From an uncultured virus (IMG/VR IMGVR_UViG_2675903231_000002) (taxonomy: Duplodnaviria; Heunggongvirae; Uroviricota; Caudoviricetes), in IMG/VR virus record IMGVR_UViG_2675903231_000002: a DNA stretch of 64,000 bases; one strand, 5' to 3'. The notes beneath the pieces were generated by a model that searched no databases, was not told the DNA's origin, and saw nothing but the letters and a program-made list of their open reading frames with translations. The stretch's first letter is position 1. The number at the start of each line of letters is the position of its first letter. A program made the translations under genes and the position numbers. Of this stretch, positions 1-63,016 are shown piece after piece.

Positions 1-426
1 TGTGTGGTAATGCTTGAGCTTCTGGACGAAGTGTGCGAACGGGCTCGCCGCGCAGGCCAAGTTGGTCGGCGAGTGGGTCTTGGTTTGACATACGAAGGAT
101 TGAGCGGCGGATTCTATCGGGCAAAGACGATTTCGCAGCCCTCAAACAGGCCGGAGGAACTGTATCCCACATTGTCGGCGTTGCTCGACCGGCATTGGGA
201 TGGGAGTGGTGTGCGTGCGGTATCCGTATCTCTCGACCTGCTGATATGGGATACAGCGGTGCAGTTGTCCCTGTTTGATGATGTGCCGCGGCGAAAGAGG
301 TTTTGGCAGGCCGTTGACGGGATTCGCGCGCGTTTTGGTGAAACGGCTGTTATGCGTGCCAGCAGCTTGATGCCTGCCGGGCAGCTTCGTGAACGCGCGC
401 AGAAGATTGGGGGTCACTGGGCGTGA
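1..426 (+). CDS. Y-family DNA polymerase (DinB/UmuC-like), C-terminal part, 5'-truncated by the window edge
   Basis: Little-finger-like region followed by QLSLF clamp motif and 'AVDGIRARFGETAVMRASSL...IGGH' tail typical of Bacillota PolY2/UvrX; followed by a YolD-like gene. Confidence 0.85.
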   Translation, partial: CVVMLELLDEVCERARRAGQVGRRVGLGLTYEGLSGGFYRAKTISQPSNRPEELYPTLSALLDRHWDGSGVRAVSVSLDLLIWDTAVQLSLFDDVPRRKRFWQAVDGIRARFGETAVMRASSLMPAGQLRERAQKIGGHWA

Positions 427-6573: not shown

Positions 6574-7050
6574 TCAGTCGTGGAACGTCTGCCAAAATTC
6601 TTCCCACCCGGCGCCATCCGGGAGCAACCGCAGCCTCCGCAGCGCTTGGTCCGCGCTTCCGTTCCACTCGGCGGCATCATCGTACAGGCGAACTGTCCGC
6701 CCATCCTCCGCCGTGGCTACTACCACGCTATCCGAGGGGCCGAGGTTAGAGACCCCGACTCGGTCCAGCTCGGACTGGATGACAGCCTCCACGCCCGCCA
6801 TCTGGAACGCCTCGGCTTCATCCCGGGTGTCGAAGAACTCGACCCGCTCCAGCGAAACCTCTGAGTCGTCCCAAGCGACCCATCGTCCGTCTGGCAATCG
6901 CGTGATGTACCACGTCACATCCCCGTTCTGCAAAACCGCCTGGGACGCCTCGAACAGCTGCGTCTCAGATCCGAAGCCGAGCGCCTGCGCAAAATCAAAC
7001 ACGGTCATACTCCTCGTCTCCTTCTCCCGTCTCGAGCGGGTTTGATTCAC
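6574..7050 (-). CDS. acidic hypothetical protein
   Basis: ORF in operon; likely start at MTVFDF. Confidence 0.6.
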   Translation of the reverse strand: MNQTRSRREKETRSMTVFDFAQALGFGSETQLFEASQAVLQNGDVTWYITRLPDGRWVAWDDSEVSLERVEFFDTRDEAEAFQMAGVEAVIQSELDRVGVSNLGPSDSVVVATAEDGRTVRLYDDAAEWNGSADQALRRLRLLPDGAGWEEFWQTFHD

Positions 7051-7559
7051 TCGGCCCAGCCCATCACTTCGTCGACCTGGCCGATCACGTCTTCCCAGTC
7101 GACCGGCCCGTAGTTGTACTCGATGAGCGGCTGAGTCAGGCCGTACCGGATGCGAAGCTCATCCTTCACTGACGCCTCTCCGTAGCCCAGCCACGCCTCC
7201 TTGCCAATGTCCTGCGCGATCTCCGCCAACATCTCGGCGAGCGGTCGCCCAGCAAACGTCAGTATGCCGACCTCTTGCGGCCGTCGCACCCACACGATCT
7301 CGGTCGGCAGAACCAGCACGGCGCCCTCGTCCGCGTCGAAATCCTCGTCCTCTGACTCCTCACCTTCCAGAGCGACGACCACCACATCGTTCATGTCGGC
7401 ACCGCGGGACTGGAAGTACCTCTCCAGGCCCCGGAGCGTGCGGCAGCAGGATACCCCGCGCCTCTCGTCGAAGCCGTCCCACACTGTGGACCGCCAGTTG
7501 CTCGGGTCGAGCAGTTCCTGCGGATTCCGGCTTGCCTCCTGGATGCGGTAGTACGTCAC
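7047..7559 (-). CDS. acidic hypothetical protein, possible ADP-ribosyltransferase-like fold
   Basis: GTG start at 7559 with GGAGG; YYR...GVS...EG pattern; shares a PTxIVWVR motif with 8246..8767. Confidence 0.55.
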   Translation of the reverse strand: MTYYRIQEASRNPQELLDPSNWRSTVWDGFDERRGVSCCRTLRGLERYFQSRGADMNDVVVVALEGEESEDEDFDADEGAVLVLPTEIVWVRRPQEVGILTFAGRPLAEMLAEIAQDIGKEAWLGYGEASVKDELRIRYGLTQPLIEYNYGPVDWEDVIGQVDEVMGWAE

Positions 7560-7592
7560 CGTTTTCGCCTCCGTTTCCGTCTTTCTGATGTC

Positions 7593-7622
7593 TAGTATAT
7601 CCAAACTGTATGACGCATGCAA
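7593..7622 (-). promoter_or_regulatory. sigma-A type promoter
   Basis: TTGCAT-17 bp-TATACT on the minus strand upstream of the GTG at 7559. Confidence 0.55.
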
Positions 7623-7734
7623 TACGAACAGCATACGAACATATTGTGAATTAATTGTGTCTACCGTAGCCAACAAATATCCCCGCTTGCGCGTGGCTAT
7701 CGACAAAGCCCCCGCCGACGGGCGAGGGCCGAGT

Positions 7735-7905
7735 TCAGTGCCTGCGCAAGTAATCGATGATCTGCTCCTTGGTCCATATCGGGCCGCTTGCCAAGCGGAT
7801 GACCGGCTCCGGAAACGCGCCGCGGCGAATATACGTCACCAGCTTGCGCTTATCCCAACCCAGGAGTTCCGACGCCTCCGCAACGCCGACAAGCGGCGGA
7901 ATCAG
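7735..7905 (-). CDS. small HTH DNA-binding domain (AlpA/excisionase-like); start uncertain, possibly the frameshifted C-terminus of the upstream ORF
   Basis: 'PPLVGVAEASELLGWDKRKLVTYIRRGAFPEPVIRLASGPIWT'. Confidence 0.65.
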   Translation of the reverse strand: MIPPLVGVAEASELLGWDKRKLVTYIRRGAFPEPVIRLASGPIWTKEQIIDYLRRH

Positions 7906-8210
7906 TTTCCCAGGTGCATCTCCCGGAAAGCGGACTCGGAGATGACTTGGCGCGCCGACGAGTGCTTGTCGTATGTCTCGCCGTCCGGCATGACCTCGAT
8001 CACAGTGGCGTCCAGTGTGGTAGTGACCGCCATGTCGCTTTCGGTCACCAAATACACGGACTCGTTCCCGCGCCGAATCCAGAGCAGGTGACCGCCCTGC
8101 TCCTCCCAAGTCTGCAGCGCCTCCCGGGCGTCCTCCGAGTACGCTCCGGCCGGAGCGTTTTCTGCCGCGATGGCGGCGTGCAGTTGTTCCACGAGCGTCA
8201 CCATATACAT
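7902..8210 (-). CDS. acidic hypothetical protein
   Basis: ATG at 8210 with AAGGAGG RBS. Confidence 0.6.
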   Translation of the reverse strand: MYMVTLVEQLHAAIAAENAPAGAYSEDAREALQTWEEQGGHLLWIRRGNESVYLVTESDMAVTTTLDATVIEVMPDGETYDKHSSARQVISESAFREMHLGN

Positions 8211-9690: not shown

Positions 9691-9847
9691 GGCTATCATA
9701 CTTCAGAATTATCTCAAGCGCAAAACATCTGAGGAAAAATTGACGCTTTGATAACAAAAGTAGGGTGAGATACCCACGAATCTTTGATGGCGAGGGCATT
9801 TCTTCTGAGAAAGATATATCATGATAGTTGATCCTACACGGTCCTGG

Positions 9848-10046
9848 GTTGCATCAGAACAACCATCTCACGGAAAGCCCAATCGAGGATTTGTTGTCAT
9901 ATTGCGGGGCCGCTTGTCAAGAAATCCGTATCAAGCATTCGAGCGAAAAAACATTTATAGCATTTGTTTTCATATGTACGGGACTCATTGGTCATCGGGA
10001 GGCAGTAACCACTGCATCAGAAAACCCAGTTAGGACTTGTATCTTG
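9848..10046 (+). CRISPR. Degenerate 3-repeat mini-array in opposite orientation to array 1
   Basis: GTTGCATCAGAA...GAGGATTTGTTGTCAT (9848-9900), ...TTTGTTTTCAT (9937-9973), ACTGCATCAGAAAACCCAGTTAGGACTTGT (10011-); 36- and 37-bp gaps. Confidence 0.55.
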
Positions 10047-10075
10047 GCTCGGGAAACCGAATGGCTGAACATCAT

Positions 10076-10235
10076 CAGTCTATCCCGGCGTGGAGACCCC
10101 TGCCTTTAGGTATGAGGAGGAAGCGCCGCCATCAGCAGTGGCATGGCTGCTACCGGCGGGCTGCTGTCAGCCAGCCTATCGTGCCAGCTGTAAGGCTAGG
10201 TGCAAGCCCCGCCCTTAAGGACTGGGGTAGCTTAC
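10076..10235 (+). mobile_element. Non-autonomous miniature IS200/IS605 derivative (PATE-like): left end fused to the tnpB 3' end and right end
   Basis: Near-identical to the reverse complement of 18790-18847 (left end) joined to 17577-17679 (tnpB 3' end and right end). Confidence 0.9.
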
Positions 10236-10288
10236 GTCGTTTTCTGGTGCAACAAGCAGGGCAATGAAATCCTTCACAACGGCCAAAG

Positions 10289-10757
10289 ATGACAACAAAT
10301 CCTCACGTAAGTTTTCTGATGCAACCCGGCGAAGGGTGGGAAAACCGGTGAGAGTAGCGAAATGGAAACAAGTTGTAACACAGGTTTTCTGATGCAACAT
10401 CGCATGATGCAACACCTTGGCCGCCCGTACATCGCATGGAAACAAGTTCTCACATAGATTTTCTGATGAAACAATCCGGGCGGTCAGTGGCTCTGGGAAG
10501 GCGATGGAAACAAGTTCTCAAGGTAGATTTTCTGATGCAATGTTGGCTGAAGACATCACCCATGTTCAAGCCGAGCTATGTAAACAAGTCCTCAAGTAGA
10601 TTTTCTGATGCAACGAGCGTCAGCCTATCGCACAGTATGAGCTCACTTTTATGTAAACAAGTCCTCGTGTAGATTTTCTGATGCAACAAGGTCATCGGTC
10701 CCGGATAGGCAGGTCTCAAGCATGTAAACAAGTCCTCATGTAGATTTTCTGTGCAAC
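10289..10757 (-). CRISPR. CRISPR array 1: 7 repeats of about 37 bp, 6 spacers of 31-37 bp, plus one older interrupted repeat ending at 10253
   Basis: Plus-strand consensus ATG(G/T)AAACAAGT(T/C)CTCAnnTAGATTTTCTGATGCAAC at 10289, 10362, 10436, 10504, 10578, 10651, 10722; directly downstream of cas6; strand inferred from cas orientation and the decay gradient. Confidence 0.92.
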
Positions 10758-10777
10758 CCTTCGTTTACGATTACGTA

Positions 10778-11605
10778 TTAGACCTCATATTCCCAGAGTT
10801 GCGTCGTATCGGATTGACACCATGCCTCCGTGTGGACAGCCCCGCCAGCGCTGAGTTGGATGCAACGCTCCCACAGTGTGCCCCATCCCCAAGTGGTTCC
10901 GGAAGCTATCCCCCATAGTGTAGCCATCTGAAGCCACACGTGACCATCTGCCACTACATCCGGCCGACCGTGATACATGACTTGGCCCACGAATCCATGA
11001 CATTCGAGTTTGTACCCCTGACGATTTGTATGTGACGTCTGCATTACAGACCCATACTGCATGCCAGGAACCAGTGAAGACTCGTCATACCAGATGAAGC
11101 TGTTGGGTGCCAGCTTCAGCGAGAACCACTCTCGTGCCATGGTGGAGAACTTCTGTCGCGTTAGTGGGATGAGCACATCCATGCGCGGCGGTTGGCGAAA
11201 GCTGAAACGGATATTCTTGCGCGCCAGGTACTTCAGTGTGTTCTCGGCGTAATAGACGGGCGTGATGAACTGCACGTACAGTGTGTCTCCTTCCGCCTCC
11301 TCGTAACGGACAGAGACGTGTTCCGCCTCCGGGTATGCGAATCGCACAACGCTTTGCATCTCTTCATCTACCGCAGGCACCCATGCGATTCGCACGTGTT
11401 GCCCATCCAGGTCAGGAAAGACACGATATGGGCTGGTCTTTCGCACGCGATTGTCCCACCAAGCGGGCATTCCTGCCGGCCGGCGGGCCAACAGGTCACC
11501 TATCTTGGATCTAACCAGACCCGCATCTGTTCCAGGAATTCGAACCACCTTTGTTTCGACCATCATTTTCTGAACAGCCTCTTTTGGGCTGAGCGTGTCA
11601 AGCAT
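10778..11605 (-). CDS. cas6: Cas6-like crRNA processing endoribonuclease
   Basis: 'VQFITPV', 'GFVGQVMY' and C-terminal G-rich loop 'WGIASGTTWGWG'; ATG overlaps the recD stop; adjacent to array. Confidence 0.75.
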   Translation of the reverse strand: MLDTLSPKEAVQKMMVETKVVRIPGTDAGLVRSKIGDLLARRPAGMPAWWDNRVRKTSPYRVFPDLDGQHVRIAWVPAVDEEMQSVVRFAYPEAEHVSVRYEEAEGDTLYVQFITPVYYAENTLKYLARKNIRFSFRQPPRMDVLIPLTRQKFSTMAREWFSLKLAPNSFIWYDESSLVPGMQYGSVMQTSHTNRQGYKLECHGFVGQVMYHGRPDVVADGHVWLQMATLWGIASGTTWGWGTLWERCIQLSAGGAVHTEAWCQSDTTQLWEYEV

Positions 11606-13637
11606 TCTGCGCTTCCTCCTCCCACACGACGGCCGCCGGTGCAAGGACTGCACCTGCCTGTTGAATCGTTCGCTCAAGTGCGGCGTTGAGGCGACGTGTA
11701 AGACGATTGTCGATTGGCGGAACCTTGGCTTCTCGCACCTGGCGTACCATTTCATCCGGGTTTTTTGCCATCACCGTCAGACTCGTCTTGGCCCGGGTTA
11801 AAGCCGTGTACAAAAGCCGCGGATCCTCATATGCCTCTGGCATCACGACAAGAACGTGGGCTCGTTCAGCGCCTTGCGCCTTGTGGATGGTGAGTGCATA
11901 TGCTAGAGACCATTCATCAATGGCTTCCATCTCGTCCAATGTGGTTTCGGTGTCATCGTCAAATCGGGCCGTGATGACGCCATCATCGACGCTTACAATG
12001 ACACCCATCTCACCGTTTTTTCGACCAGTGGTGTAGTTGGGAGCGTTCTGCACGATGCGCAAGCCCGGGCGCCATTTGACGTCGCCGCCGAGAAACCAGC
12101 TATTGATCTGCTGTTGACCAATGGTCCGCGTCTCCGTCGCATCCCGGAACGGCGTCAGAATCAGCCAATCAGTCGCATCAAGACCGCCATGTTCCTCCAC
12201 CCACTGCATGATCTTCTGCCGCCAATGCTCTTCGGAGTCTGTCTCAATGGCAATCGCATTTATTACCGGCGGATGCCATGTCCATGGCTGGTCGATGTCC
12301 CAAAACCGGTGCGCCACTTCAGCTAATGAGCCAGCTGAACGATGAGGAACCGACAGCGTTCTGGAGGCTCTTGATACGATTGGATGAGTCAGACAGGTCC
12401 GGAATGGCTGACCGAATCCGACAGGTGGCAGTTGATTCGCGTCCCCGATGAAGACCACACGCAGATTGTGGTGTGTGAGTGTGGACCACACAATCGCGTG
12501 GAAGGTTTGCAGGTCGCACATGCTGGCCTCGTCAACCACTATCCATTGGTCCTGTCCGGAGGCCGGGAACGACCCTTTCTCCACACGTGACGAATGGTTA
12601 AATAGAGCATACGCGGAGTGAATGGTGAACGCCTGAATATCTGCCACGTCACGCAAGCGCTTGGCGGCAAGGCCCGTTGGTGCAAGACCGGTAACGGCAT
12701 CGTTCATACCGAGCTTGCGGGTCGTGTCTGCCAAGGCCTTCACTAATGTGGTTTTGCCCGTCCCGGGCCCGCCTGTGACCATGGTCAAGGGCTGTGTCCA
12801 CATGGCTGCCAGGGCTTCCTCTTGTGAGGTGTCTAGCGCCAATTCACTGACCAGCGAGGACCAATTTTGCGGCAACGAAAACGAGGGCCTGCGTATGTGC
12901 TCCGCCAAGGCCTCCGCGATCTGAATTTCTGACCAGTAGGCCCACTGTGGGTACAGGCGCAGTTTTCCGCCAACTTCCTGGTGAACTGCGGGAAACGGCG
13001 TGTCGAGTCGTTTGTCAGACGGATAAATCGCCCTCCAGTTCTCAACGAGTCGGCGCGCGTATTCTTCTGCTTTGCCGTTGTGCCGGCCGAGGTACCGGGC
13101 GGCCAATTGCACGGCGGCGCTGGATTTGGCGATGCGGATCACGGAATTCCCCGATTGCCACACGTGCCCGCATGCAGCAACGAAAAATCCTCGAATCCGC
13201 TTCTCTTCCAAGCGTGTCTCGTGAGCGTACTTGGCGTCGATGATCGCCAACTCAGGCAGAGACAAGGCTTGGCCGAGTACATATGGGTTCGTCTGAATTT
13301 CCTCCACACAATGCTGTATTGACGTAGCGTGATTGTGTGCAATCTCCTCGACGGCGTTGAGCAGAGTCCCGTATGGAATGCCCGTTGATAATACCTCGTT
13401 CAAGTGTTCGTGGATGAGCCCGTGGATTTGGTTGCGGCACCACCGCGCGGTCCACTTTCGAACGGAATCAGGGATGTCCAACGGTGCATTGAGCACCCAC
13501 TGAGGAGTGGGAAACGACATGTCTTGTGTCAATGCACCTTCTTCTCTCGCTTTCATGACCGCGGCCAAAAAAATGCGTCCGTAAGGGTGCTTGTCCAGTT
13601 CCGACATCCAGTTCGACGAACCGGAGGACTTTTTCAC
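11598..13637 (-). CDS. recD: RecD/RecD2-like SF1B helicase associated with type IV Cas genes
   Basis: GGPGTGKT, LAPTGLAA, VVDEASM, IGDANQLPPV, AYALTIHKAQG, LLYTALTRA; GTG overlaps the csf3 stop. Confidence 0.92.
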   Translation of the reverse strand: MKKSSGSSNWMSELDKHPYGRIFLAAVMKAREEGALTQDMSFPTPQWVLNAPLDIPDSVRKWTARWCRNQIHGLIHEHLNEVLSTGIPYGTLLNAVEEIAHNHATSIQHCVEEIQTNPYVLGQALSLPELAIIDAKYAHETRLEEKRIRGFFVAACGHVWQSGNSVIRIAKSSAAVQLAARYLGRHNGKAEEYARRLVENWRAIYPSDKRLDTPFPAVHQEVGGKLRLYPQWAYWSEIQIAEALAEHIRRPSFSLPQNWSSLVSELALDTSQEEALAAMWTQPLTMVTGGPGTGKTTLVKALADTTRKLGMNDAVTGLAPTGLAAKRLRDVADIQAFTIHSAYALFNHSSRVEKGSFPASGQDQWIVVDEASMCDLQTFHAIVWSTLTHHNLRVVFIGDANQLPPVGFGQPFRTCLTHPIVSRASRTLSVPHRSAGSLAEVAHRFWDIDQPWTWHPPVINAIAIETDSEEHWRQKIMQWVEEHGGLDATDWLILTPFRDATETRTIGQQQINSWFLGGDVKWRPGLRIVQNAPNYTTGRKNGEMGVIVSVDDGVITARFDDDTETTLDEMEAIDEWSLAYALTIHKAQGAERAHVLVVMPEAYEDPRLLYTALTRAKTSLTVMAKNPDEMVRQVREAKVPPIDNRLTRRLNAALERTIQQAGAVLAPAAVVWEEEAQNA

Positions 13638-14305
13638 TCTGATTCCCTCCATACAGCGTCGTAACTGCGTACTCGGCACAGTACGGGCTCGTGATGGAAA
13701 TACGGTGGCTCGATGGCGTGGGCGTCAAGGATTCCTCGGAACCCGTTCTCTCTTGCATAAGATTCTGGAACGGGTCGGAGAACAAGACTGTCAACGCCAG
13801 CGATTGCGGAGTTGAGATCCGGCCGGCGTCGCAAGATTGCTCTGGCGATCCGGCCCATCCCACGCTGTCCCTTTTGCCCCACGTACATACCAGGAAGTCT
13901 CTGCGCTAGGCGAGCGAACTCGTCCACTTGCTCAGCGTCCACATCGACGAAGAAGTACAGGAGCGGGACAGACAGGTACGTGTATCGTACCATGGCACCG
14001 CGGAGAATCCCTGAGCTGGTCTCAATGGGTTTGAAAAACCACGGGGTGCCCTTGAAAACCGCTTCTTCCCCAGTTTCCATGGTTGGTGCAAAGAGTGCTG
14101 ACACCGCCCAGAACTGGCCATCTTGAGACTCGAAACGTCTCACTGGCAAGGAGATTGGTTCCCATTGGTCCGGATCGCGCCGGTTTGCCGCGTCCGGATA
14201 CAGTTCCCGCGCACGTGCTGCGAATAAGAGTGCGTCTCCCATCAAAACGCCCCTGCGCGGCAGGAAGACTGGTGCCTCCAAAAAGAGGCGGACCTCGAGG
14301 ATCAC
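13634..14305 (-). CDS. csf3: Type IV Cas5-like RAMP
   Basis: RAMP N-terminal strand, 'GQKGQRGMGRI' G-loop, 'LRPVP', 'PPYF'; position after csf2. Confidence 0.8.
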   Translation of the reverse strand: MILEVRLFLEAPVFLPRRGVLMGDALLFAARARELYPDAANRRDPDQWEPISLPVRRFESQDGQFWAVSALFAPTMETGEEAVFKGTPWFFKPIETSSGILRGAMVRYTYLSVPLLYFFVDVDAEQVDEFARLAQRLPGMYVGQKGQRGMGRIARAILRRRPDLNSAIAGVDSLVLRPVPESYARENGFRGILDAHAIEPPYFHHEPVLCRVRSYDAVWRESE

Positions 14306-15234
14306 GACACGGACACTTCCTTCATGGCGACGTAGAACGGCTCCTTATGGGTCAGGAGGAAGTGCAGCATGTCCCTGTTTTGTCTGACATACTCTGTGAA
14401 CATTGACGGATCCAGACGTTCATCTTCCGGAATTCGTTCCCAGGACACGAGGCCAAATCCGCTCTTGGATTTGCCGCCGAAAAACGGCCGGTTGCGAAGC
14501 CGCTCAATTGCCAAACCCATCATGCTCCAATCCATGGGCGTTGCATTGTCGTGGAGCGTGAAACGCACGACAAACGGATAACCAGGCAGCACATATCCGT
14601 GAGTTACCGGCATGTTGCGGAATGGGTTCTTTTTGCCCTCTTGGTCATCAGACACCACTTCAGGCAGTCCGATGAGGGAAGGCATTTCCGGCATGCGATA
14701 GGTTGTCCAAGCACCGTTGTTGGTGAAGCTGTCCTTCAGTGCAAAGTCCTCAAACCAATCGTCCGGGAGCGTGGGAAAGAGAACTCGTAGCTCGTTTGAA
14801 GCCGGATATGCGTGTCCCAGGGCGCACCGACTGGTAATAAATTGACCTCCAACGACACCACCTAGCAGACCAAACATCGGCAGCAGCTGCTTAACCTTCT
14901 CCACATCATCCAACGACAGACGCACCTCGTTTGTGATGAGCACCCCGCCACTGGTAAGCGTGTGGTACGTGATCTTCTGGCCGCGCGTTCCATGTCCGTA
15001 GAAGGACACAGGATCGATCCCCAGTTCCTCAAAGAGATACCCGGCCAACTCCCGGCGAATACGGCCGCCGAAGCTGTTGCCGGAGAGCACCGGAGCCTCC
15101 ACGGGCGCTTCCTCACCCGTGTACACTTTGAGGGTTCTCAGTATTCCGCGGGACTCACCTTCCTCTCGCCGCGATTCAATCGATTGGAACAAGGGGGTGA
15201 GAGTGCGAAAACGCAGGTACAGATCACTCGGCAT
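14302..15234 (-). CDS. csf2: Type IV Cas7-like backbone RAMP
   Basis: 'TLTPLFQ', 'PVLSGNSFGGRIRR', 'LTSGG', 'FGLLGG', 'GGKSKSGFG'. Confidence 0.85.
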   Translation of the reverse strand: MPSDLYLRFRTLTPLFQSIESRREEGESRGILRTLKVYTGEEAPVEAPVLSGNSFGGRIRRELAGYLFEELGIDPVSFYGHGTRGQKITYHTLTSGGVLITNEVRLSLDDVEKVKQLLPMFGLLGGVVGGQFITSRCALGHAYPASNELRVLFPTLPDDWFEDFALKDSFTNNGAWTTYRMPEMPSLIGLPEVVSDDQEGKKNPFRNMPVTHGYVLPGYPFVVRFTLHDNATPMDWSMMGLAIERLRNRPFFGGKSKSGFGLVSWERIPEDERLDPSMFTEYVRQNRDMLHFLLTHKEPFYVAMKEVSVS

Positions 15235-15937
15235 GGGATTCCATCTCCTTTTTCCGGTGTGTCATGATAATGGCCCGAGTCCAATCTCTTAGTGCTTCCT
15301 CTAACGGTTCGAGAATGGGATCGAGCGTACTGCGGATCTCCTTTGGCTTGGGGTACCCATTGATGCGCCAGTCATTTTCGAGCGCCGCAACGCGCTCCGC
15401 GATATCTGCTGGCGCGTACATTGGCTTGGAACGCCAAACAATGATCCAATTCGGATCGTAACAAACTTTCCCACGGAAGATGGTGTGCTTTTGCTTGTAC
15501 GATCCTTCGACCGCGACAGCCAAGAGCGGGCGAATGCGAGGAATCCTGTACCACGGAAGCTCATATGTGTCCCACGGGAAGAACGAGGTGAAATCCTCAC
15601 CTTTTGTGCCATATGCGAGGAAGCTCCACGCATTTGGTGCATTCTGCAGTCCAAATGTGAACATGAGTGCGCATGACTCACACAACCAGGGCGACATGAC
15701 TGGGAAGTAGTCATGGTCAGTAAATGTGGTCAGCAATATGTCACTTCGTGCATACGCTTGTCGTACGCGACGAGTGCAAAAGGAACACCGGGCGTCCACA
15801 TCGTGAGGGGGATGGTCGATCTTCCAGTCGGTACGAGTTTTAACGTGTTCGGCAAACAGGTCGGAAAGAAAAATCAATTTTCCACCTTCTCTGCATGTTC
15901 TATCGCAAGTTTGGGGAAGCGCTGTTCCCTGCGTCAT
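15224..15937 (-). CDS. csf1: Type IV Cas8-like large subunit
   Basis: Zn-binding CSFC...CESC pairs and 'KQKHTIF' motif; first gene of the csf operon. Confidence 0.75.
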   Translation of the reverse strand: MTQGTALPQTCDRTCREGGKLIFLSDLFAEHVKTRTDWKIDHPPHDVDARCSFCTRRVRQAYARSDILLTTFTDHDYFPVMSPWLCESCALMFTFGLQNAPNAWSFLAYGTKGEDFTSFFPWDTYELPWYRIPRIRPLLAVAVEGSYKQKHTIFRGKVCYDPNWIIVWRSKPMYAPADIAERVAALENDWRINGYPKPKEIRSTLDPILEPLEEALRDWTRAIIMTHRKKEMESHAE

Positions 15938-17576: not shown

Positions 17577-18847
17577 GTCAGCTACCCCAGCCCTAAAGGG
17601 CGGGGCTTGCACCTAGCCTTACGGCTGGCACGATAGGCTGGCTGACAGCAGCCCGCCAGTAGCAGCCATGCCACTGCTGGCAAGGTACTTCCGGGCAATG
17701 TTGCGAGCCGCGTTCAAATCAGCATTCAGTTCAAATCCGCAGTTCCGGCACAAGAAGCGTGATTGCGTCCGTCGGTTAGAACGGTGGACGTATCCGCAAC
17801 ATGAGCACATCTGCGACGTATGGCGAGGGTCAATGCCAACGACAACGCAACCCTTCTCCACCGCCTTGTATTTCAGGAACGAACGTAATTGTGCAAACGT
17901 CCACGAATGCAAGCGGCGGCGGGACTCTCGTCCGCGTTGCTTGACGCGCGTGCGGATGTGATTCAAGTTCTCGACGACAATCACAGTGCCGGGTTCAACG
18001 GAATCGACGATACGCCGACTGAGAACGTGGTCGCAATCGCGGCGGAAGCGGTGAACCTTCCCGGACAGGCGGCGCAAATGCCGCTTGGCCGAGCGAGTGC
18101 CTTTCGCCTGAAGCGCACGCTTCAATCGGAAATACCTGCGGTCAATCTCTTTCCAACGCTTCTCACCGAGGAAGTTGGCGGTGGATGTGACAGCGGGATG
18201 GTTCAATCCCATGTCCACGCCGACGACATTCCCGGTTGGGGAGAAGGAGGCATCTGGAATGGTCACCACGAGATGCAGCCAAAACCGGCCCTTTCGATAG
18301 ACCAGATCGGCGCTATCGAAGCCAGTAGCTTGAGCGAGGAGACGATCCGCATGTGGATTGCGAGCGAATTCAACCGACTGACGGCTTGCAACCGTAGAAA
18401 GGCTGACAACACTCGCGTTCGGGTGAAATGTGTATGTCCGCGCATCGTACCGGATCGGGACCAAGTTCCCGTGGGGGCAAGACGTCTTGCTGCCTTTCTT
18501 CAACCGGTTCAAAGCGGACTTGACGGCCTCCGTCGCACGCACCCGCGCGGCAATCAAAAGTTGCGCAGGCAAGTCCGGATGTTCCACACGGAGAGTGCGG
18601 TACGTCTCGTGGTGCAGCGTCACACCGTTCTTACAACGCTTCTGCCAGCCAACAGCACAGACAGCGTTAAAACAAGCGGTGTGCTCCACGAGGGTCCGCA
18701 ACAGAATTTCCTCCTGTTTGGTTGTGGGTTTCAACAACAATCGGATCGTTCTCCTCATATTTCATACCCTAGCACATTTCGCAGAAAGAGGATGGCGACG
18801 CTCCTCCCCATGCCTAAAGACAGGGGTCTCCGCGCCGGTATAGACTG
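17577..18847 (-). mobile_element. IS200/IS605 family, IS1341-type (tnpB only) element 1
   Basis: Subterminal hairpins (ggagacccctgtctttaggcatgggg at left end; gccccgccctttagggctgggg at right end); ends in TGAC and is preceded by TTAT. Confidence 0.85.
17619..18758 (-). CDS. tnpB: RNA-guided endonuclease TnpB
   Basis: RuvC D-E-D (VGVDMG, VVENL, NADLNAARNI) and zinc finger CSCCG...CRNCG. Confidence 0.95.
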   Translation of the reverse strand: MRRTIRLLLKPTTKQEEILLRTLVEHTACFNAVCAVGWQKRCKNGVTLHHETYRTLRVEHPDLPAQLLIAARVRATEAVKSALNRLKKGSKTSCPHGNLVPIRYDARTYTFHPNASVVSLSTVASRQSVEFARNPHADRLLAQATGFDSADLVYRKGRFWLHLVVTIPDASFSPTGNVVGVDMGLNHPAVTSTANFLGEKRWKEIDRRYFRLKRALQAKGTRSAKRHLRRLSGKVHRFRRDCDHVLSRRIVDSVEPGTVIVVENLNHIRTRVKQRGRESRRRLHSWTFAQLRSFLKYKAVEKGCVVVGIDPRHTSQMCSCCGYVHRSNRRTQSRFLCRNCGFELNADLNAARNIARKYLASSGMAATGGLLSASLSCQP

Positions 18848-18937: not shown

Positions 18938-20141
18938 GTCATGAACCCCAGCCCTAAAGGGCGGGGCTTGCAGTTGTAGCCTGCGCTATACCGCGTACGG
19001 CTGCATGACTTCAGCCCTACGGCGAATGTTCACCGCAGCGATGGTGTCGGCTGGGCCAGCGAACCCACATTCGACACACTCAAAATTATCCCTTGTGGGG
19101 CGATTGCGTTTGTCCGCATGACCGCAGCTTGGACATGTTCGAGATGTATTGCGCGGATCGACGAACACCACGGGCACACCCGCCAAACGTGCCTTGTACT
19201 CGATGAAGAAGCGAAGCTGATGGAATGCCCAGGAATGCTGGGTGCGACGCTGAGCCTTGCGAACCGTTATCCGGTCACGAATGCCCTTGAGATCTTCAAG
19301 TGCAATCCCGCGCCCGGTGTCTTTGGCTTTCGCAACCAGCACTTTCGCAATGCGATGGTTTACGTTGGTGGCGAAACGGGCTTCCTTGCGGCGACGCTTC
19401 TTCAGCAGACGCTTGGCAGACTTTGTGCCTTTCGATTGCAGGCGTTGGCGAAGGCGTGCGTGGCGATGGCGCAGTCCGTTCACGTGCCCTCCAGAAAACA
19501 CCTCGCCGTCGCTGTCTGTCGCGATGTTCTTAATGCCCAAGTCCACGCCAAGAAATCCATTTGGAGCACCTTGTGGTGGATCTGGGACATCCACAACGAC
19601 AGCGAGGTAGAAGGTGCCATCGCGGTAAATCAGGTCGGCTTGTCCACGAATCCGCTGGAGGCGTGCAGCCTGGTACTCGCCAAACAAAATGGGGACCAAG
19701 ATGCGGCCGCCAAGCGTTAGGATGGACACGCGATCAAGACCTTTCCAAGAAAGGAGGCGTTGGTCATATACGATGGCGCCATGCGGCTTGAATGTCGGCT
19801 TTATCGACTTGTCTCGCTTGTACGCTTCGCACGCCTTAGCGATAGCACGGACGGTCATTTGGGCTGAAAGCCCAAATTCCTTGCGGATACTGTCGTACAC
19901 GAGCTTTTGCAACCGGATCTTGTTTGCAGTGCGATGTTCGAAAGCCACTTCCGCAATCGCATTGCAAGCCGCATTGAACCGTTCCATCGTCTCAAGCAAC
20001 GCTTGGTGCTGTTCAGTTGTGGGTAGCAGCTTGACCATCAACGTCAGGTTCATGCCGTTATTATAGCACAAATCGTTCAATACAATAAGAGCGCGTTTCC
20101 TCCCCATGCCTAAAGACAGGGGCTTCCGCGCAAATCATATG
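18938..20141 (-). mobile_element. IS200/IS605 family, IS1341-type element 2
   Basis: Same terminal hairpins as element 1; right end in TGAC; left boundary approximate. Confidence 0.8.
18986..20053 (-). CDS. tnpB: RNA-guided endonuclease TnpB
   Basis: LGVDLG, IALEDL, ADTIAAVNI; CPSCG...CVECG. Confidence 0.95.
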   Translation of the reverse strand: MNLTLMVKLLPTTEQHQALLETMERFNAACNAIAEVAFEHRTANKIRLQKLVYDSIRKEFGLSAQMTVRAIAKACEAYKRDKSIKPTFKPHGAIVYDQRLLSWKGLDRVSILTLGGRILVPILFGEYQAARLQRIRGQADLIYRDGTFYLAVVVDVPDPPQGAPNGFLGVDLGIKNIATDSDGEVFSGGHVNGLRHRHARLRQRLQSKGTKSAKRLLKKRRRKEARFATNVNHRIAKVLVAKAKDTGRGIALEDLKGIRDRITVRKAQRRTQHSWAFHQLRFFIEYKARLAGVPVVFVDPRNTSRTCPSCGHADKRNRPTRDNFECVECGFAGPADTIAAVNIRRRAEVMQPYAV

Positions 20142-20725: not shown

Positions 20726-21229
20726 TCAATGGGTGCGAAAAGTCCGATTGGCCCAGGTTACGAAATCGTCCAAGGACATGACGCGGATGTTCTTCCCGGC
20801 TACATCAGCGCCATACAGTCGTTCCTGTGCCGCACGTTTGAGCCAATCCATGGCCCCTTTCTTTGCTCCCGAACCGCCAAGAACGATAAAAATATCCTTT
20901 TCTGGCATGGCCTCGATGGCATTGAGGTAGACGTACGGGTACTTCTCGTCTACGCTTCCCGAGGATTGTTGCCATTTGCATTCGATCCGAATGCGCAGGT
21001 TGTAATCTGCTGAGACGAGCAAGAATTCGGTCTTGCCCTCGTGGCCATAGATCGACGTGTACGGTGCGTGTTGGAGTAGCAGCTCGGTGCCGTATCGTTC
21101 CGGGCGCTTGATGTACTTGGAGAACGGGACGACCGTGAAGCCCTTACTGGTCATGACTTCGCGTATCATCCGTTCCAAGACGGTGCCGGAACTGTTTGCG
21201 AATCCACCCTGGGTGCTCGGACGGTTCAT
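20726..21229 (-). CDS. PD-(D/E)XK nuclease, putative restriction endonuclease
   Basis: 'TEF...RIECKWQQSSGSVDEK' motif; coupled to dam. Confidence 0.75.
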   Translation of the reverse strand: MNRPSTQGGFANSSGTVLERMIREVMTSKGFTVVPFSKYIKRPERYGTELLLQHAPYTSIYGHEGKTEFLLVSADYNLRIRIECKWQQSSGSVDEKYPYVYLNAIEAMPEKDIFIVLGGSGAKKGAMDWLKRAAQERLYGADVAGKNIRVMSLDDFVTWANRTFRTH

Positions 21230-22038
21230 TGGTGCGTACCTCCAAAGAGTGCGAGAACTTCAGTTGCTGTTCCCCGGTTTTCTCCGTCGCAGCTGATGAA
21301 ACGACGCACCTCGAGGTGCTCCACATCTGCCGCGGCGTACGCGTTTTCCGTGAAATCCGTCGCGTGATTGGAGATGAGGACCGGGATGCCCCGCTCTCCA
21401 AGCGTCGTAGCCAGGCGTGCCAAGTCCCGTTGGTCGTCCGGTCCGAATCCTCCGGCCGCGTAGTCAGTAAAATTCGCGGTGTCCGAGAGTGGGACGTATG
21501 GCGGGTCGCAGTAGATCACGTCACCAGATTGGGCCTGGCGCATGACCACGCGAAAGTCTTGGCACACGAATATGGCATGTTGAGCTTTCTGCGCGAAGTA
21601 CCGCATTTCCTCTTTTGGAAAGTACGGGCGCTTGTACCTTCCAAATGGGACGTTAAATTGGCCACTCGTGTTGTACCGGCACAGGCCGTTGTATCCGTGA
21701 CGGTTGAGATACACGAACAGGGCGGATTTGCGCCATGGATCCGTTGTCTCGTTGAACTCTGCACGGAGCGCGTAGTACCGCTCAGACGTGTTGTTCTCGG
21801 GTACGAACAACGTCTCGCAGTACGTGATGAACGAATCTCCATGTTGTTTGAGTGTCTCGTAGACCTGGATGAGGTCTTGGTTGATGTCGGACAACACGTA
21901 CTCTGGGTAGTCCGTGTTCAAGAAAACTGCACCTGAACCTACGAATGGCTCTATGAGCCGGCGTCCAGGTGGCAATCGACGTTTGATATGCTCAACGATG
22001 CGGTACTTCCCGCCGGCCCATTTGAGGAATGGTCGCAT
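21226..22038 (-). CDS. dam: Dam-family N6-adenine DNA methyltransferase
   Basis: LKWAGGK, EPFVGSGAV, FNVPFG, YCDPPY. Confidence 0.95.
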   Translation of the reverse strand: MRPFLKWAGGKYRIVEHIKRRLPPGRRLIEPFVGSGAVFLNTDYPEYVLSDINQDLIQVYETLKQHGDSFITYCETLFVPENNTSERYYALRAEFNETTDPWRKSALFVYLNRHGYNGLCRYNTSGQFNVPFGRYKRPYFPKEEMRYFAQKAQHAIFVCQDFRVVMRQAQSGDVIYCDPPYVPLSDTANFTDYAAGGFGPDDQRDLARLATTLGERGIPVLISNHATDFTENAYAAADVEHLEVRRFISCDGENRGTATEVLALFGGTHQ

Positions 22039-22151
22039 ATACCTCTCCTTACGTCGTTGACGTCGTTGGCGGAGGTTTGAGCTCCGACCTGTACTTCATT
22101 CTACAGGACAAGCCATGGCTGCGCTGGAACAGCCGGGTTAGATTCGGTTGG

Positions 22152-24299
22152 CTATTCCTGCAGCACACGGAGATATCTGGAGAGTTCTACGGGCTCTCCG
22201 CCGTATTGCTGGGCAGCCATGAGATACAGGTTCTCCTTGGCGCGGGTGATGGCAACATAGCACAGCCTGGTTTCTTCTCTGAGGCTGGGGCCGGATAGGG
22301 ACTTGCGATGAGGAAGTATTCCCTCAACCAGGTCCACCACGAAGACCGTCCACCATTCGAGACCCTTGCTCTTGTGGATGGTCATGAGTTGAACCGCATC
22401 ATCCTTGGGTTGCCTGGACTTCTCAATTACCCAGTCCACATACCACAGGAACTCCGGCACCGTTTTGTATCTCGACGCTGATCGAATGAGCGCGTCCACC
22501 CATGTGACTGGTTCGTCATCGTCTTGTTGGCGCACTACTGTCGGGTGCGTTTGGACCAGCCATCGCAATGCTTCTGCGGGGTTCTCGTAGCGACTTAGCT
22601 CCTCCACGGTTTCGCGAAATGATCGGCACTTGGGGTGCGCCATGACCGCTTCCCACCCGCCGGCCTTTACCTCGTCCACGACCTGCTTTGGGATGAATCG
22701 TCTTGGGCGGTTGAGCAGTGGTATCCAGGTTGCAGGATCCGAATGGTCGATGGTGACACGGAGATAGTCCAGAAGCGTCTTCACATCTCGGTTCTCGTAA
22801 AAATGCTTGTCCCCCACGACCTGGTATGGTATGTCCTGCTCAGCCAGGGCTTCTTCGTACGCGCGAGACTGAACGTTTGTGCGGTACAAGATGGCGTATT
22901 CGCTCCACGGAATCCGGGGGTACCGCTCATGCAACCGTGCGATTTCTTCGGCCACGAATTTGGCCTCTCCCCAGTCCGATTTGGTTGTGATGATTTCCGC
23001 GGTGGATGTGTCCTCCGATACTTCGCGCGCCGCATGCACGCGTTTTTCGATTTGGTGACCGCGGTTTAGGGCTATCACTCGGCCGGCAAGTTCAAGTATC
23101 AGGTCGTGCGACCGATAATTGATGTCGAGTACGATCTTCCTGGCATCCGGAAATTCCTTCTGGAACTGAAACATCAGATCCGGCCGGGAGCCTCGAAAAC
23201 CGTAAATGGCCTGAAAGTCGTCGCCAATCACAAAGAGATTTCGTGTGTTGCGTACGAGCTCCAACAAGAACAGCCACTGCGAGTAGTTTGTGTCCTGAAA
23301 TTCGTCGACAAGCACGTATCTCCAGCGGCGTCTCCAACGGTCTCGAAAGTCCGAGTTGGTCTTGAAGAACCTGAGTACGTGCAACAGCATGTCGTCGAAA
23401 TCAAGGATGTGCCGTTCGGCCTTGAGCGCCTCGTATGCAGCATACACCTTTGCCAGTGTATTGTCCTGAACTTGCTCCGGCATAAGGGCCTCTGCTTTGG
23501 CCCGGGATACGTTCGTCAGGGCCTCCTGTGAGCTGGCGTATAGTGGCCCCACGCCGTGGGGATTTAGGTTGCTCGGTTCAGACAGTACAGTATCCATGAG
23601 CCAGGTTGGGTCTGCGGCAACTTTCCAGTCGTCCTTCAGGAACGATTTGAGCATGCGATAGGCTACAGCGTGCATTGTGCCAATGGTGACTTGTTTGGCT
23701 GCATCCCTTCCCACCACGTCTACGAGTCGGGTTCGCATTTCATCGGTCGCCTTGCGAGTGAACGTGCAGGCGAGAATTGAACGCGGGTCGACACCGCTTT
23801 CAATCAGGTACTGTATCCTTGCGATGAGTACGGCCGTTTTACCGGATCCTGCGGCGGCTATCACCATACATGGTCCATCTGTGTGTCGGGCTGCCTCCTG
23901 CTGAGCGGGATTGAGTTCTTGAAGTGACGGCACGTAGAACGTACTCCTTTCCCAGTTGGCGTATACCGCCTCTGCAGGGTCGGGCGTCGCCGAGGTTGTT
24001 GAAGTTTGTACAGACTCCGGGATTGACGGAAACCTGAAAATGTGGGTAAAGAATCGCGGGCAGTCTGGGGCGTGCTTGCCGCGAGGGTTCGTTACGAGGC
24101 AATAAGCCGGAGGACGCGTCTGATAACGGCGAATGTGCATGCGTACGGGTCGTTCGGGTTTGCACATGCACAAGAGTGTCGCGTTTTCGCGGTACAGGTC
24201 CTGGAGGAGTTCCTGCATGTGTCCCGGACCGGTTACCAACTCGGCATAGTTGAGCCGGATCGTTCCTCGACTTGTTGACGCCTCAATCCACCCCGCCAT
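22152..24299 (-). CDS. UvrD/PcrA-like SF1A helicase with extra Cys/His-rich N-terminal domain
   Basis: AAAGSGKT, LVDEFQD, GDDFQAIYGFRG, NYRS, TIHKSKGLEW, YVAITRAK. Confidence 0.92.
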   Translation of the reverse strand: MAGWIEASTSRGTIRLNYAELVTGPGHMQELLQDLYRENATLLCMCKPERPVRMHIRRYQTRPPAYCLVTNPRGKHAPDCPRFFTHIFRFPSIPESVQTSTTSATPDPAEAVYANWERSTFYVPSLQELNPAQQEAARHTDGPCMVIAAAGSGKTAVLIARIQYLIESGVDPRSILACTFTRKATDEMRTRLVDVVGRDAAKQVTIGTMHAVAYRMLKSFLKDDWKVAADPTWLMDTVLSEPSNLNPHGVGPLYASSQEALTNVSRAKAEALMPEQVQDNTLAKVYAAYEALKAERHILDFDDMLLHVLRFFKTNSDFRDRWRRRWRYVLVDEFQDTNYSQWLFLLELVRNTRNLFVIGDDFQAIYGFRGSRPDLMFQFQKEFPDARKIVLDINYRSHDLILELAGRVIALNRGHQIEKRVHAAREVSEDTSTAEIITTKSDWGEAKFVAEEIARLHERYPRIPWSEYAILYRTNVQSRAYEEALAEQDIPYQVVGDKHFYENRDVKTLLDYLRVTIDHSDPATWIPLLNRPRRFIPKQVVDEVKAGGWEAVMAHPKCRSFRETVEELSRYENPAEALRWLVQTHPTVVRQQDDDEPVTWVDALIRSASRYKTVPEFLWYVDWVIEKSRQPKDDAVQLMTIHKSKGLEWWTVFVVDLVEGILPHRKSLSGPSLREETRLCYVAITRAKENLYLMAAQQYGGEPVELSRYLRVLQE

Positions 24300-24429
24300 G
24301 GCGTTCGCCCCCTCGATCCCATTGTGGTATGAGGCACTTCGAGGAAGGACGCAAAATCTGTGCAATCCCCATGTAAGGGTGGTTTCAAGTTCTTTCCCCC
24401 ATTGACTATGGCCATTCACCTGAACCATT

Positions 24430-49759: not shown

Positions 49760-49890
49760 GCCAATTCCCCCGTTGAAAGGCCAAGTTAACAGCTCGACCG
49801 TAACACGCAACAAACGCAAAAACGCGCAACTTTTGTGCCAACTTTCTGCTTGCTGAAAGCGCTTGGAAAAGGGGGGGCGTACGAGCAACC

Positions 49891-50055
49891 TTGACGTATA
49901 TTTCGGCTGTGCTACACTAAACATGAAAAGAGAGCCGAAGGCGGCGACCTTCGACTCTCGGGCACCGACGCCTTGAGCGTTATCCCTGCCCGTAAAATCG
50001 ATCGGGCAAGTAACCGCCCCACCGGCGCTAACCTATGGGGGCGGTTACTTGCGTC
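49891..50055 (+). ncRNA. Putative type I antitoxin RNA with promoter
   Basis: TTGACG-16-TACACT promoter, hairpins, terminator caagtaaccgcccc...ggggcggttacttg overlapping the toxin 3' end convergently. Confidence 0.6.
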
Positions 50056-57955: not shown

Positions 57956-58007
57956 CTGGCAAGGTACTTTCGAGCAATGTTGCGAGCCGCGTTCAAATGA
58001 TCATTCA
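57956..58007 (-). pseudogene. tnpB 3' fragment (LNAARNIARKYLA)
   Basis: 57956-57998 matches 17677-17719 at 41/43 bp; both differences are synonymous. Confidence 0.85.
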
Positions 58008-58055
58008 AGTGATCTGATGCACAGTAGATAGCGTGCAGCAGGCCGAAAAGAGCTC

Positions 58056-59059
58056 ATGGCAACAAATTCTCACTTCGATTTTCTGATGTACCCCGTATTG
58101 CGGCCACGCTTGACCATCTTGTAGATCTGATAACAAATGCCAATATATCTTTTCTGATGTACCGCTCTTTCGGGAGCATTGTGAGCGCCTACACCCCATG
58201 GCAACTAATTGCCACATAGATTTCTCTGATGAAACCAAGACGATGGCGACCGGACTTAAGCGTGTCGACCGTCCACAGCCGTATGGTCACGTTCAAATAG
58301 TAACAACTTCTTACTCGGCTTTTCTGACGCGACTAAACCGTGGAGATCACCGTCGACATGCACGCGCCTATGGCATAAAAATTCTCACGGAGATTTTCTG
58401 GTGCAACGCGTTACGGCGCCGGACCTTGAGACTGGTTCGCCGGCTATGGAAACAAGTTCACAAGAAAGTTTTCTGATGCAACAAGATGGAGTTCGCGGCG
58501 TTCGCGGAGGCCGTCATCTGGAGATAAATTCTGAAGTAATTTTCTGGTTGTCACCGACCTGGCTAGCGCCAACTGGTGCATGCGATGGAAACAAGTTCTA
58601 ACGTAGTTTTCTGATGCAAACCTATAGACGGTACCGATGTGCCGGTGGATCACGGAATGGAAACAAGTCCTCACGTAAGTTTTCTGATTCAACATGACGC
58701 ACGGTTCCTCGAACACTCACTGGGATCGGTATGGAAACAAGTTCTCAGGTAAGTTTTCTGATGCAACGAACTCTCCCGCGCGGTCAAGCAGGCGCAAGTC
58801 AAATGGAAACAATTGCTGACATAAGTTTTCTGATGTAACTCTGTCCGGCTTCACCACGATGCGGGTCTGGATCTCATGGAAACAAGTGTTCTAACATTGG
58901 TTTTCTGATACAACGGCGCAATCAATCGGTGGCTGGCCGAGGTGCTCCAGATGGAAACAAGTTCTAACATAAGTTATCTGATGCTACAGCCCACACCCGA
59001 TCCCGCGGTTGCCTCTTTGGTTATGGAAACAAGTTCTAGCATAAGTTTTCTGATGCAAC
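58056..59059 (-). CRISPR. CRISPR array 2: about 14 repeats of the same family as array 1, decaying toward low coordinates
   Basis: Repeats at about 58056, 58127, 58198, 58297, 58370, 58446, 58518, 58585, 58657, 58731, 58803, 58876, 58951, 59023; consensus ATGGAAACAAGTTCTnACnTAAGTTTTCTGATGCAAC. Confidence 0.92.
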
Positions 59060-59088
59060 CCTTCGTTTACGATTACGTATTAGACCTC

Positions 59089-62987: not shown

Positions 62988-63016
62988 GTTCCATGTCTCC
63001 TTTTGGTTTAGATGAT

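Follow-up and report, generated by a model that had tools for sequence, protein, structure and literature searches.

A type IV-D CRISPR-Cas locus with a RecD-family helicase on a putative conjugative element, and the candidate targets and spacer source of its arrays

The 64,000-nucleotide (nt) stretch of IMG/VR record IMGVR_UViG_2675903231_000002, hereafter the window, carries on its minus strand a locus (10289..15937) in which csf1, csf2, csf3, recD and cas6 follow one another from 15937 to 10778 and are succeeded by a CRISPR array. On balance, the sequence evidence favors an intact type IV-D CRISPR-Cas system, borne by a conjugative plasmid or by an element resembling an integrative and conjugative element (ICE), that may depend on a protospacer-adjacent motif (PAM), may be assisted by RecD, is probably non-destructive and may receive its spacers from a type I-G system of the host. 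The assignment to type IV-D is itself supported, as the locus agrees with this subtype at every sequence-level point tested. In Supplementary Data 2 of the published IV-D survey, one row typed IV-D refers to positions 11598-13637 of a draft Alicyclobacillus contig, marked ‘In_tree Yes’ and with the origin ‘Chromosome’ (PMC7038947); these coordinates equal those of recD in the window, which indicates that the locus had already been catalogued as IV-D, a point missed by the original prediction made for this DNA from its sequence alone. What we believe to be new here is a third array, a set of placed spacers that includes matches to a co-resident circular plasmid, a TTC-like flank of the protospacers and a leader of the type I-G kind on the third array.

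All five genes are named by PADLOC profiles, and all lie on the minus strand. The csf1 gene (15224..15937) encodes a small Cas8-like subunit of 237 amino acids (aa), which matches Csf1_0_IV with an E-value of 2.7e-6 and NCBIfam TIGR03114 with one of 0.0039; csf2 (14302..15234) encodes a type IV Cas7 of 310 aa (Csf2_0_IV, 2.5e-36 over residues 7-288), and csf3 (13634..14305) a type IV Cas5 of 223 aa (Csf3_0_IV, 2.9e-18). The recD gene (11598..13637) encodes a RecD2-like helicase of superfamily 1B (SF1B) of 679 aa (RecD_0_IVD, 6.4e-55; NCBIfam RecD2, 2.2e-61), residues 212-620 of which align with Deinococcus RecD2 (PDB 3e1s, 8e-31), and cas6 (10778..11605) encodes a protein of 275 aa (PADLOC Cas6, 6.1e-6; Pfam CRISPR_Cas6, 3.8e-4, which is below the cut-off). 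Apart from the RecD2 match, NCBIfam returns the same family names as PADLOC more weakly, with scores below the curated cut-offs, and Pfam detects in the five proteins only helicase domains and the sub-threshold CRISPR_Cas6 match. The starts of two genes were chosen within longer open reading frames (ORFs). The longest recD ORF runs from 13679 to 11598 (693 aa), and the most likely start, judged from the local sequence at the csf3 stop, is the GTG at 13637, which shares GTGA with that stop and is preceded by GGAGGG; the longest cas6 ORF runs from 11755 to 10778 (325 aa), and the ATG at 11605 is backed by the homologue in G043, another genome of the host's order. With these starts the genes overlap at all four junctions, by 11, 4, 4 and 8 nt, which fits translational coupling.

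Csf1 is the weakest of the five family assignments, and its two CxxC pairs (C51, C54, C86 and C89) are kept in the G043 homologue at 29% identity. Csf2 has three other relatives among 5.8 billion proteins, and the Cas6 family is likewise very small, with 6 clusters among 1.84 billion representatives. An AlphaFold model of Cas6, built from an 8-sequence alignment, has a predicted local distance difference test (pLDDT) of 82.4 and a predicted template modeling score (pTM) of 0.81; a Foldseek search with this model gives 45 matches at E <= 1e-3, and the top matches in the PDB are all Cas6 endoribonucleases (3zfv at 2e-8, 4ill, 6fjw and 6njy), among which 4ill is a Cas6 that acts on unstructured repeats and 6njy is a type IV Cas6. 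The C-terminus of the protein contains the G-rich motif WGxxSGTTWGWG, which we take to fit the G-rich loop of Cas6. In RecD, neither the Walker A sequence GGPGTGKT nor the DE of Walker B varies across our alignment A5. The N-terminal 265 aa have no Pfam match, and language-model features alone liken them to the RecD2 HHH domain (score 0.91), which is a lead only. RecD2 belongs to SF1B and has 5'-3' polarity.

Searches of the five proteins against Pfam, NCBIfam, PADLOC and PDB sequences detect no nuclease domain, and a Pfam scan of the 44 large ORFs of the window reveals no DinG, Cas1 or Cas2 domain; a search of the complete assembly places Cas1, Cas2 and Cas4 on C47 and C85 only, with none on the element that carries the locus. 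No cas11 gene was identified, as a 107-aa ORF upstream of csf1 and a 139-aa ORF upstream of the G043 csf1 match no Cas11 model. The same csf1-csf2-csf3-recD-cas6 order is present on a 9-kb contig of G043, which ends inside cas6, and the homologues there are 41% (Csf2), 37% (RecD) and 34% (Cas6) identical, in addition to the value given above for Csf1. Among the 64 genomes of the host's order that were searched, G043 is the only other one with this IV-D lineage; a genome of the same bacterial family (G015) carries a type IV-B locus composed of csf1, cas11, csf2, csf3 and a CysH-like gene. The original prediction had read the locus as five translationally coupled genes followed by an array, with a RecD-like SF1B helicase where type IV-A has DinG and with neither cas1/cas2 nor a nuclease domain in view, and had pointed to type IV-D; the gene order, the junctions, the profile matches, the published catalogue row and the synteny with G043 bear this out. 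The profile and structure searches that it proposed name all five proteins and recover the Cas6 fold, and recD, the conservation of which in this context it had named as a test, holds the same operon position in G043.

The host genome comprises 3.79 Mb in 95 contigs at 63% GC, and the window covers the opening 64 kb of the 91-kb contig C49 at 55% GC. The conjugation and maintenance genes of C49 encode a VirB4-like ATPase, type IV secretion system (T4SS) pilins, SLT and 3D-domain proteins, ParA and two actin-like segregation proteins, in line with the conjugative element that had been predicted; a tyrosine recombinase, Tad-type genes and several defense-like genes are also present. A second contig, C68, encodes a protein like the type IV coupling protein (T4CP) and a Tad ATPase, and it probably adjoins the end of C49 across a copy of an insertion sequence (IS). 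Both contigs end in IS copies, so that the element may be either a plasmid or an ICE. That the element is a conjugative plasmid or ICE-like element of ~100 kb, made up of C49 and probably C68, forms part of the reading favored above and is held, jointly with it, as somewhat better than an even chance.

Three arrays share one repeat type. Array 1 (10217..10757, minus strand) begins 20 nt past the cas6 stop codon and extends ~70 nt beyond the left edge of 10289..15937; its 8 repeats, each of 37 nt, alternate with 7 spacers that measure 32-37 nt, and the repeats decay away from cas6. Array 2 (57987..59059, minus strand) is an orphan array of 14-15 decayed repeats and 13-14 spacers. The repeat core occurs at 11 places in the window, where 0.02 are expected. 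A genome-wide repeat search found array 3 on C68 (676-1513), with 12 repeats and 11 spacers. The figure of about 20 spacers in two arrays that had been given earlier thus stands for the window (20-21 spacers), whereas the third array, which brings the number to ~32, had been missed. Identical stretches of 29 nt precede the three arrays (10758..10786 for array 1, overlapping the cas6 stop codon, and 59060..59088 for array 2, both on the minus strand), and in each array the repeats decay away from this shared leader end, which indicates that the arrays would be transcribed in the direction of the cas genes. Because the repeat RNA folds into no structure better than shuffles on either strand, the orientation was taken from the repeat decay, the shared leader and the side of the PAM. 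Array 3 has the most uniform repeats, in that 5 of the first 7 share one sequence and the remaining 2 depart from it by a single base, which argues for recent growth of this array; the repeats of arrays 1 and 2 are less uniform. Past the trailer end of array 1, at 9846..10047 on the plus strand, the repeat recurs in two degenerate and oppositely oriented copies, one of which has an altered middle; these may be the remnant of a convergent array.

Spacer targets were sought by blast of 30 spacers against the host's own genome and by comparison of all three arrays with the 64 genomes of the order, and the flanks were read on the spacer-identical strand, directly 5' of the protospacer. Clear protospacers were obtained for 10 of the ~32 spacers, all of them in mobile elements. 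Two spacers of array 1 match contig C70 perfectly (36/36 each) beside a TTC flank: A1_S02 in an ORF next to parA, and A1_S03 in an ORF after a T2SSE ATPase. A third, A2_S14, matches the VirB4/TraC gene of the same contig at 23/34, also beside TTC. Elsewhere in the host genome, A2_S07 has a perfect match of 35-36 nt in the prophage region on contig C53 (flank TTT), and A3_S11 matches an integrated element on contig C69 at 34/38 (TTC). In other genomes of the order, matches are found for A1_S05 in a Rep-like HTH_36 gene of G027 (36/37, CTC), A2_S05 in a T4CP gene of G027 (33/37, TTC), A2_S01 in G040 (29/35, TTC), A3_S01 in a phage antirepressor gene of G022 (30/37, TTA) and A3_S03 in a DUF2800 nuclease gene in four genera (30-33/36, TTG or CTG). 

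The contig C70 is 54,946 nt long and has the same 101 nt at both ends, which indicates a closed circle of ~54.8 kb. It represents a second conjugative plasmid, which encodes an ArdC-like protein, a relaxase, a T4CP, TrbL, VirB4, TubZ and ParA, and the VirB4 proteins of C70 and C49 share only 22% identity. The two spacers with perfect matches to C70 occupy positions 2 and 3 from the leader of array 1 and are therefore recent. Neither C49 nor C68 outside the arrays is matched by any of the spacers blasted, and none of the spacers of the host's own type I-B, I-G and V-B arrays matches C49, C68 or C70. Prophage genes make up roughly half of the targets that could be identified, and the system is thus not directed at plasmids only; the plasmid targeting foreseen in the original prediction is borne out directly by the spacer matches to C70 and to conjugation genes in relatives, and needs to be widened to prophages. 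A spacer search had also been suggested as a way to a PAM, and it gave the TTC-like flank from the host genome and the 64 genomes of the order, whereas PLSDB plasmids yielded no blastn match for any of the three arrays. Neither the two target ORFs on C70 nor two prophage target ORFs belong to a Pfam or NCBIfam family, and the one of the two C70 ORFs that was sent to Atlas returned no usable match. The C70 ORF downstream of the T2SSE ATPase was considered as a counterpart of the T2SSF-like protein of C49 and was rejected, as BLASTP gave no significant similarity. The CRISPR RNA (crRNA) would be antisense to the mRNA for 5 of the 7 targets with a clear gene strand, a share that is not significant (two-sided binomial P ~0.45, an estimate).

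Two further observations concern the positions of the protospacers. At C53:88651-88719, the perfect match of A2_S07 and a match of A3_S08 (83% over 40 nt) overlap on the same strand within one prophage gene. In G027, a genome of the same genus, spacers of different arrays match the T4CP and HTH_36 targets on contig C1. A distance of ~99 kb separates these two chromosomal sites (2.03 Mb and 2.13 Mb), which suggests that G027 holds an integrated conjugative element of large size.

Of the 10 spacers, 6 have TTC as their 5' flank and 8 have TTN, and a T is present at -2 for all 10. With TTC making up 1.5-1.8% of trinucleotides, the probability of at least 6 such flanks in 10 is 2e-9 to 7e-9. The location of the motif on the 5' side supports the orientation assigned to the arrays and the targeting of DNA. 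In weaker homologues of the targets, A1_S05 has the flanks TTT and TTG in two more distant sequences, and A2_S07 has TTG in G040. Several of the flanks other than TTC come from diverged homologues and not from the true target, the flank of which may differ.

The contigs C47 and C85, which bear the adaptation genes, carry the host loci of type I-G (Cas3g, Cas8g, Cas7g and Cas5-6g), type I-B and type V-B (Cas12b and a Cas4/1 fusion). The I-G system is favored over V-B as the donor of the spacers, on the basis of the TTC flank, the 37-nt repeat, a leader motif of array 3 and its purine-rich junction. Among the host repeats, which measure 37 nt in I-G, 30 nt in I-B and 36 nt in V-B, only those of I-G equal the IV-D repeats in length, and both begin with GTTG (GTYG in I-G). 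Host spacers that match the C53 prophage of the same genome have the flank TTC for I-G (2/2) and TTG, CGG, CTG and TTG for I-B (0/4 TTC), whereas host V-B spacers have no match in their own genome. A published study of I-G Cas4/1 gives the PAM strand as 5'-GAA-3' (PMC10504553), which we read as the complement of TTC. Little is common to the three host I-G leaders except the sequence GGTTCGCR, located at -54, and the purine-rich GAAGR with which they end ahead of GT(T/C)G, and the leader of array 3 contains GGTTCGCG at -55 (47 nt upstream of repeat 1) and has the junction GAAGG/GTTG. The pattern GGTTCGCR-N(40-52)-GTYGATCCGC is found at 18 I-G arrays in 10 of the 64 genomes of the order, representing 5 genera, with a gap to repeat 1 that is 46 nt in 15 of the arrays and 47 nt in the other 3, although the intervening sequence varies; the reversed control pattern has no match in the 64 genomes. 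The frequency of GGTTCGCR in the genome is 5.2e-5 per base per strand, which corresponds to a chance of ~1e-4 per array in a 2-nt window. Additionally, Cas8g is present in both IV-D genomes (this one and G043), as compared with I-G in 14 of the 64 genomes of the order, although these are few cases in related genomes. Array 3, the leader of which would imitate that of I-G, is probably the active array, and acquisition of spacers in trans is described for type IV-A3 (IV-A3 preprint).

As a separate observation on the host systems, the I-B and I-G arrays each contain two spacers that are 100% identical to the prophage region of the same genome (contigs C85, C60 and C53, 80-100 kb), with TTG and TTC flanks, respectively, which amounts to self-targeting of a resident prophage by apparently complete I-B and I-G systems.

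In the mechanism that we propose, Cas6 would cut the unstructured 37-nt repeats, and Csf1, several copies of Csf2, Csf3 and the crRNA would form a Cascade-like complex that binds double-stranded DNA beside a 5'-TTC-like motif, the T at -2 being essential. The RecD2-type 5'-3' helicase, in the place of DinG, may act at the R-loop from the displaced strand and would hinder transcription or replication of the target without cutting it, and new spacers would be inserted by the adaptation proteins of the chromosomal type I-G system. The R-loop model follows by analogy from type IV-A, in which the Csf complex binds double-stranded DNA and employs the 5'-3' helicase DinG; a DinG-HNH variant is reported to load on the non-target strand (PMC10910872). 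That the interference is non-cutting is what we infer from the absence of nuclease domains and from the perfectly matched targets co-resident in the assembly, both of which would fit. A more specific scenario, to which we give tentative credence, somewhat short of an even chance, is that the IV-D system copies the leader signature of the host I-G system (the GGTTCGCR box at a fixed spacing, the purine-rich junction and the 37-nt repeat) and has TTC-flanked spacers against a rival conjugative plasmid and prophages loaded by the host Cas1-Cas2(-Cas4), while RecD restrains the targets so that targeter and target coexist stably in one cell. If true, this would be a natural, RecD-driven form of CRISPR interference with expression (CRISPRi) in a conflict between plasmids.

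Several observations weigh against this picture and are given here together with the explanations that they would serve. With regard to the donor, the flank is not TTC for 4 of the 10 spacers (CTC, TTT, TTA and YTG), and the YTG flank, seen for A3_S03 in 4 of 4 relatives, is the type found with host I-B spacers; the I-G flank is itself derived from only 2 protospacers. The GGTTCGCR motif is missing from arrays 1 and 2, the likeness of the IV-D repeat to that of I-G ends after the first four bases, and the published clustering of repeats places IV-D with I-B and not with I-G (PMC7038947). The V-B leader contains a TCGCGC core at -51 to -46, at the same distance as in the I-G leaders, and V-B adaptation is described as selecting NTTN, with a Cas4 domain close to that of I-G and similar PAMs (PMC9419969). 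The spacers could thus have come from the host V-B Cas4/1-Cas2, from I-B Cas4-Cas1-Cas2 or from earlier hosts, and the I-G likeness of the leader would then be inherited or coincidental. We consider this somewhat unlikely, as the full GGTTCGCR sequence, the junction GAAGG/GTTG and the 37-nt repeat of array 3 match I-G, and not V-B (36 nt, junction CCTGCT/GTCG) or I-B (30 nt).

With regard to the outcome for the target, the reading of the five proteins as free of nucleases rests on sequence comparison only, and a silent or blocked system would account equally well for the perfectly matched protospacers beside a PAM on C70, which was assembled together with the locus. Interference may instead be destructive, in that RecD unwinds the DNA and a host nuclease degrades it, with C70 surviving through an anti-CRISPR or the culture being a mixture of cells with either plasmid. 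Recruitment of a host nuclease is raised as a possibility in the IV-D survey (PMC7038947), the DinG-HNH variant of type IV-A degrades DNA (PMC10910872), and contig data cannot place C49 and C70 in one cell. However, C70 assembles as a complete circle alongside C49, and the searches of the five proteins returned no nuclease domain, so that destruction of the target appears unlikely. That the locus is a silent or decaying relic, its arrays being fossils and C70 persisting since nothing is expressed or assembled, would agree with the two 36/36 TTC-flanked protospacers that remain on C70, with the heavy decay of array 2 and the loss of one base from the first repeat of array 1, and with counts of promoter-like sites near the operon or the leaders that are not above shuffles, but is quite improbable in view of the five open and overlapping reading frames, the intact catalytic and structural motifs, the near-identical leader-end repeats of array 3 and the recent, leader-proximal position of the spacers that match C70. 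Terminator counts, too, were not above shuffles.

Beyond the host's order, no related locus was found in public genome contigs with Csf2 alone as the query or in public metagenome contigs with the Csf2 and Cas6 alignments as queries. Two loci from metagenome-assembled genomes (MAGs) of Anaerolineae, detected with the Csf2 alignment at 26-29% identity, were rejected, as their gene order is not that of IV-D; the order there is a protein of ~695 aa, one of ~120 aa, a Csf2-like protein, one of ~300 aa and one of ~350 aa, and these loci may be a large-subunit type IV or a type III-like variant. A search of 400 other genomes of the phylum with the Cas6 alignment gave 1 match (G177, 3.6e-11), which was likewise set aside as apparently belonging to a type I locus and not to IV-D. 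On contig C38 of that genome (8746-17487), the distant relative of the IV-D Cas6 stands beside an array of 23 repeats, whose 37-nt repeat begins with GTTGCAG, followed by four more genes, and the locus looks like type I. A few contigs of 151 nt, at depth 2, in two soil-metagenome runs that belong to separate studies are ~99-100% identical to cas6 or recD (10865-12235).

Other genes of C49 and C70 were also noted. Just upstream of the csf operon, two tandem genes of the TnpB/IS605 OrfB type with a Cas12f1-like TNB domain are located at 17619-18758 and 18986-20107, and the minus strand at 20726-24428 has consecutive genes for a nuclease (PD-(D/E)XK_11), an adenine methyltransferase (D12) and a UvrD-type helicase of 758 aa. 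The products of an operon at 61243-63754 are a ThiF-like E1, a protein that combines JAB and prokaryotic-ubiquitin domains, and one of the Prok-E2_D kind; we take this operon to be a candidate for ubiquitin-like conjugation (Bil-type) defense. At 43892-49924 there is an ORF of 2010 aa with no Pfam family beyond a marginal Kelch match, followed by a stand-alone EAL-domain gene at 43100-43756. C70 also has two genes for TnpB, one for an Mrr-like nuclease and, at 6818-8101, one for an RRXRR+HNH protein of 427 aa that is presumably IscB-like.

In comparison with published type IV-D systems, the locus has the same Csf1, Csf2, Csf3 and Cas6, a RecD-family helicase for DinG, arrays and no adaptation genes, and likewise a host of the Firmicutes type and a mobile element (Pinilla-Redondo et al. 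2020, PMC7038947). The survey row is labelled ‘Chromosome’, whereas the gene content observed here is that of a conjugative plasmid or ICE; in the survey, 1 of 49 IV-D spacers was matched, to a viral sequence, and none to plasmids, whereas 10 of ~32 were placed here; and the I-B grouping of IV-D repeats in the survey contrasts with the leader, repeat length and flank found here, which point to I-G (PMC7038947). A 2024 review gives the target and mechanism of IV-D as unknown (PMC11127173), and our literature search for a IV-D experiment, PAM or target set returned only the 2020 survey, reviews and passing mentions, although papers beyond the search may say more.

A functional parallel is type IV-A with CasDinG, and especially IV-A3, which is also plasmid-borne and combines a nuclease-free Csf complex with a 5'-3' helicase; as in the system described here, the spacers of IV-A3 are aimed at conjugation genes and at other plasmids, and adaptation is borrowed from a type I system of the host (IV-A3 preprint), as is proposed for the present locus. 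The helicase of type IV-A is the superfamily 2 protein DinG, whereas that of the present locus is of the SF1B RecD2-like kind; the Cas6 found here is of a rare family and the repeat is unstructured, and the putative donor is I-G and not I-E or I-F. Type IV-B has related Csf1, Csf2 and Csf3 proteins and is represented in the same bacterial family by the G015 locus, but it has Cas11, which was not found at the present locus, and a CysH-like gene, and is without a helicase, Cas6 or array. With the host I-G system the IV-D arrays have in common 37-nt repeats starting with GTYG, the TTC flank, the purine-rich end of the leader and GGTTCGCR 46-47 nt upstream of repeat 1; they differ in that the I-G repeat has a GC-rich hairpin and an unrelated internal sequence, and in that the distal motif is present in 1 of the 3 IV-D arrays. 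Among the type IV subtypes that bear arrays, IV-D alone is without experimental data, and the strain offers a test bed for it, with an intact operon, a candidate PAM, a matched target plasmid, three candidate adaptation modules and an I-G-like array leader, in which the role of RecD in place of DinG, non-destructive interference and the supply of spacers to a system without cas1-cas2 can be addressed.

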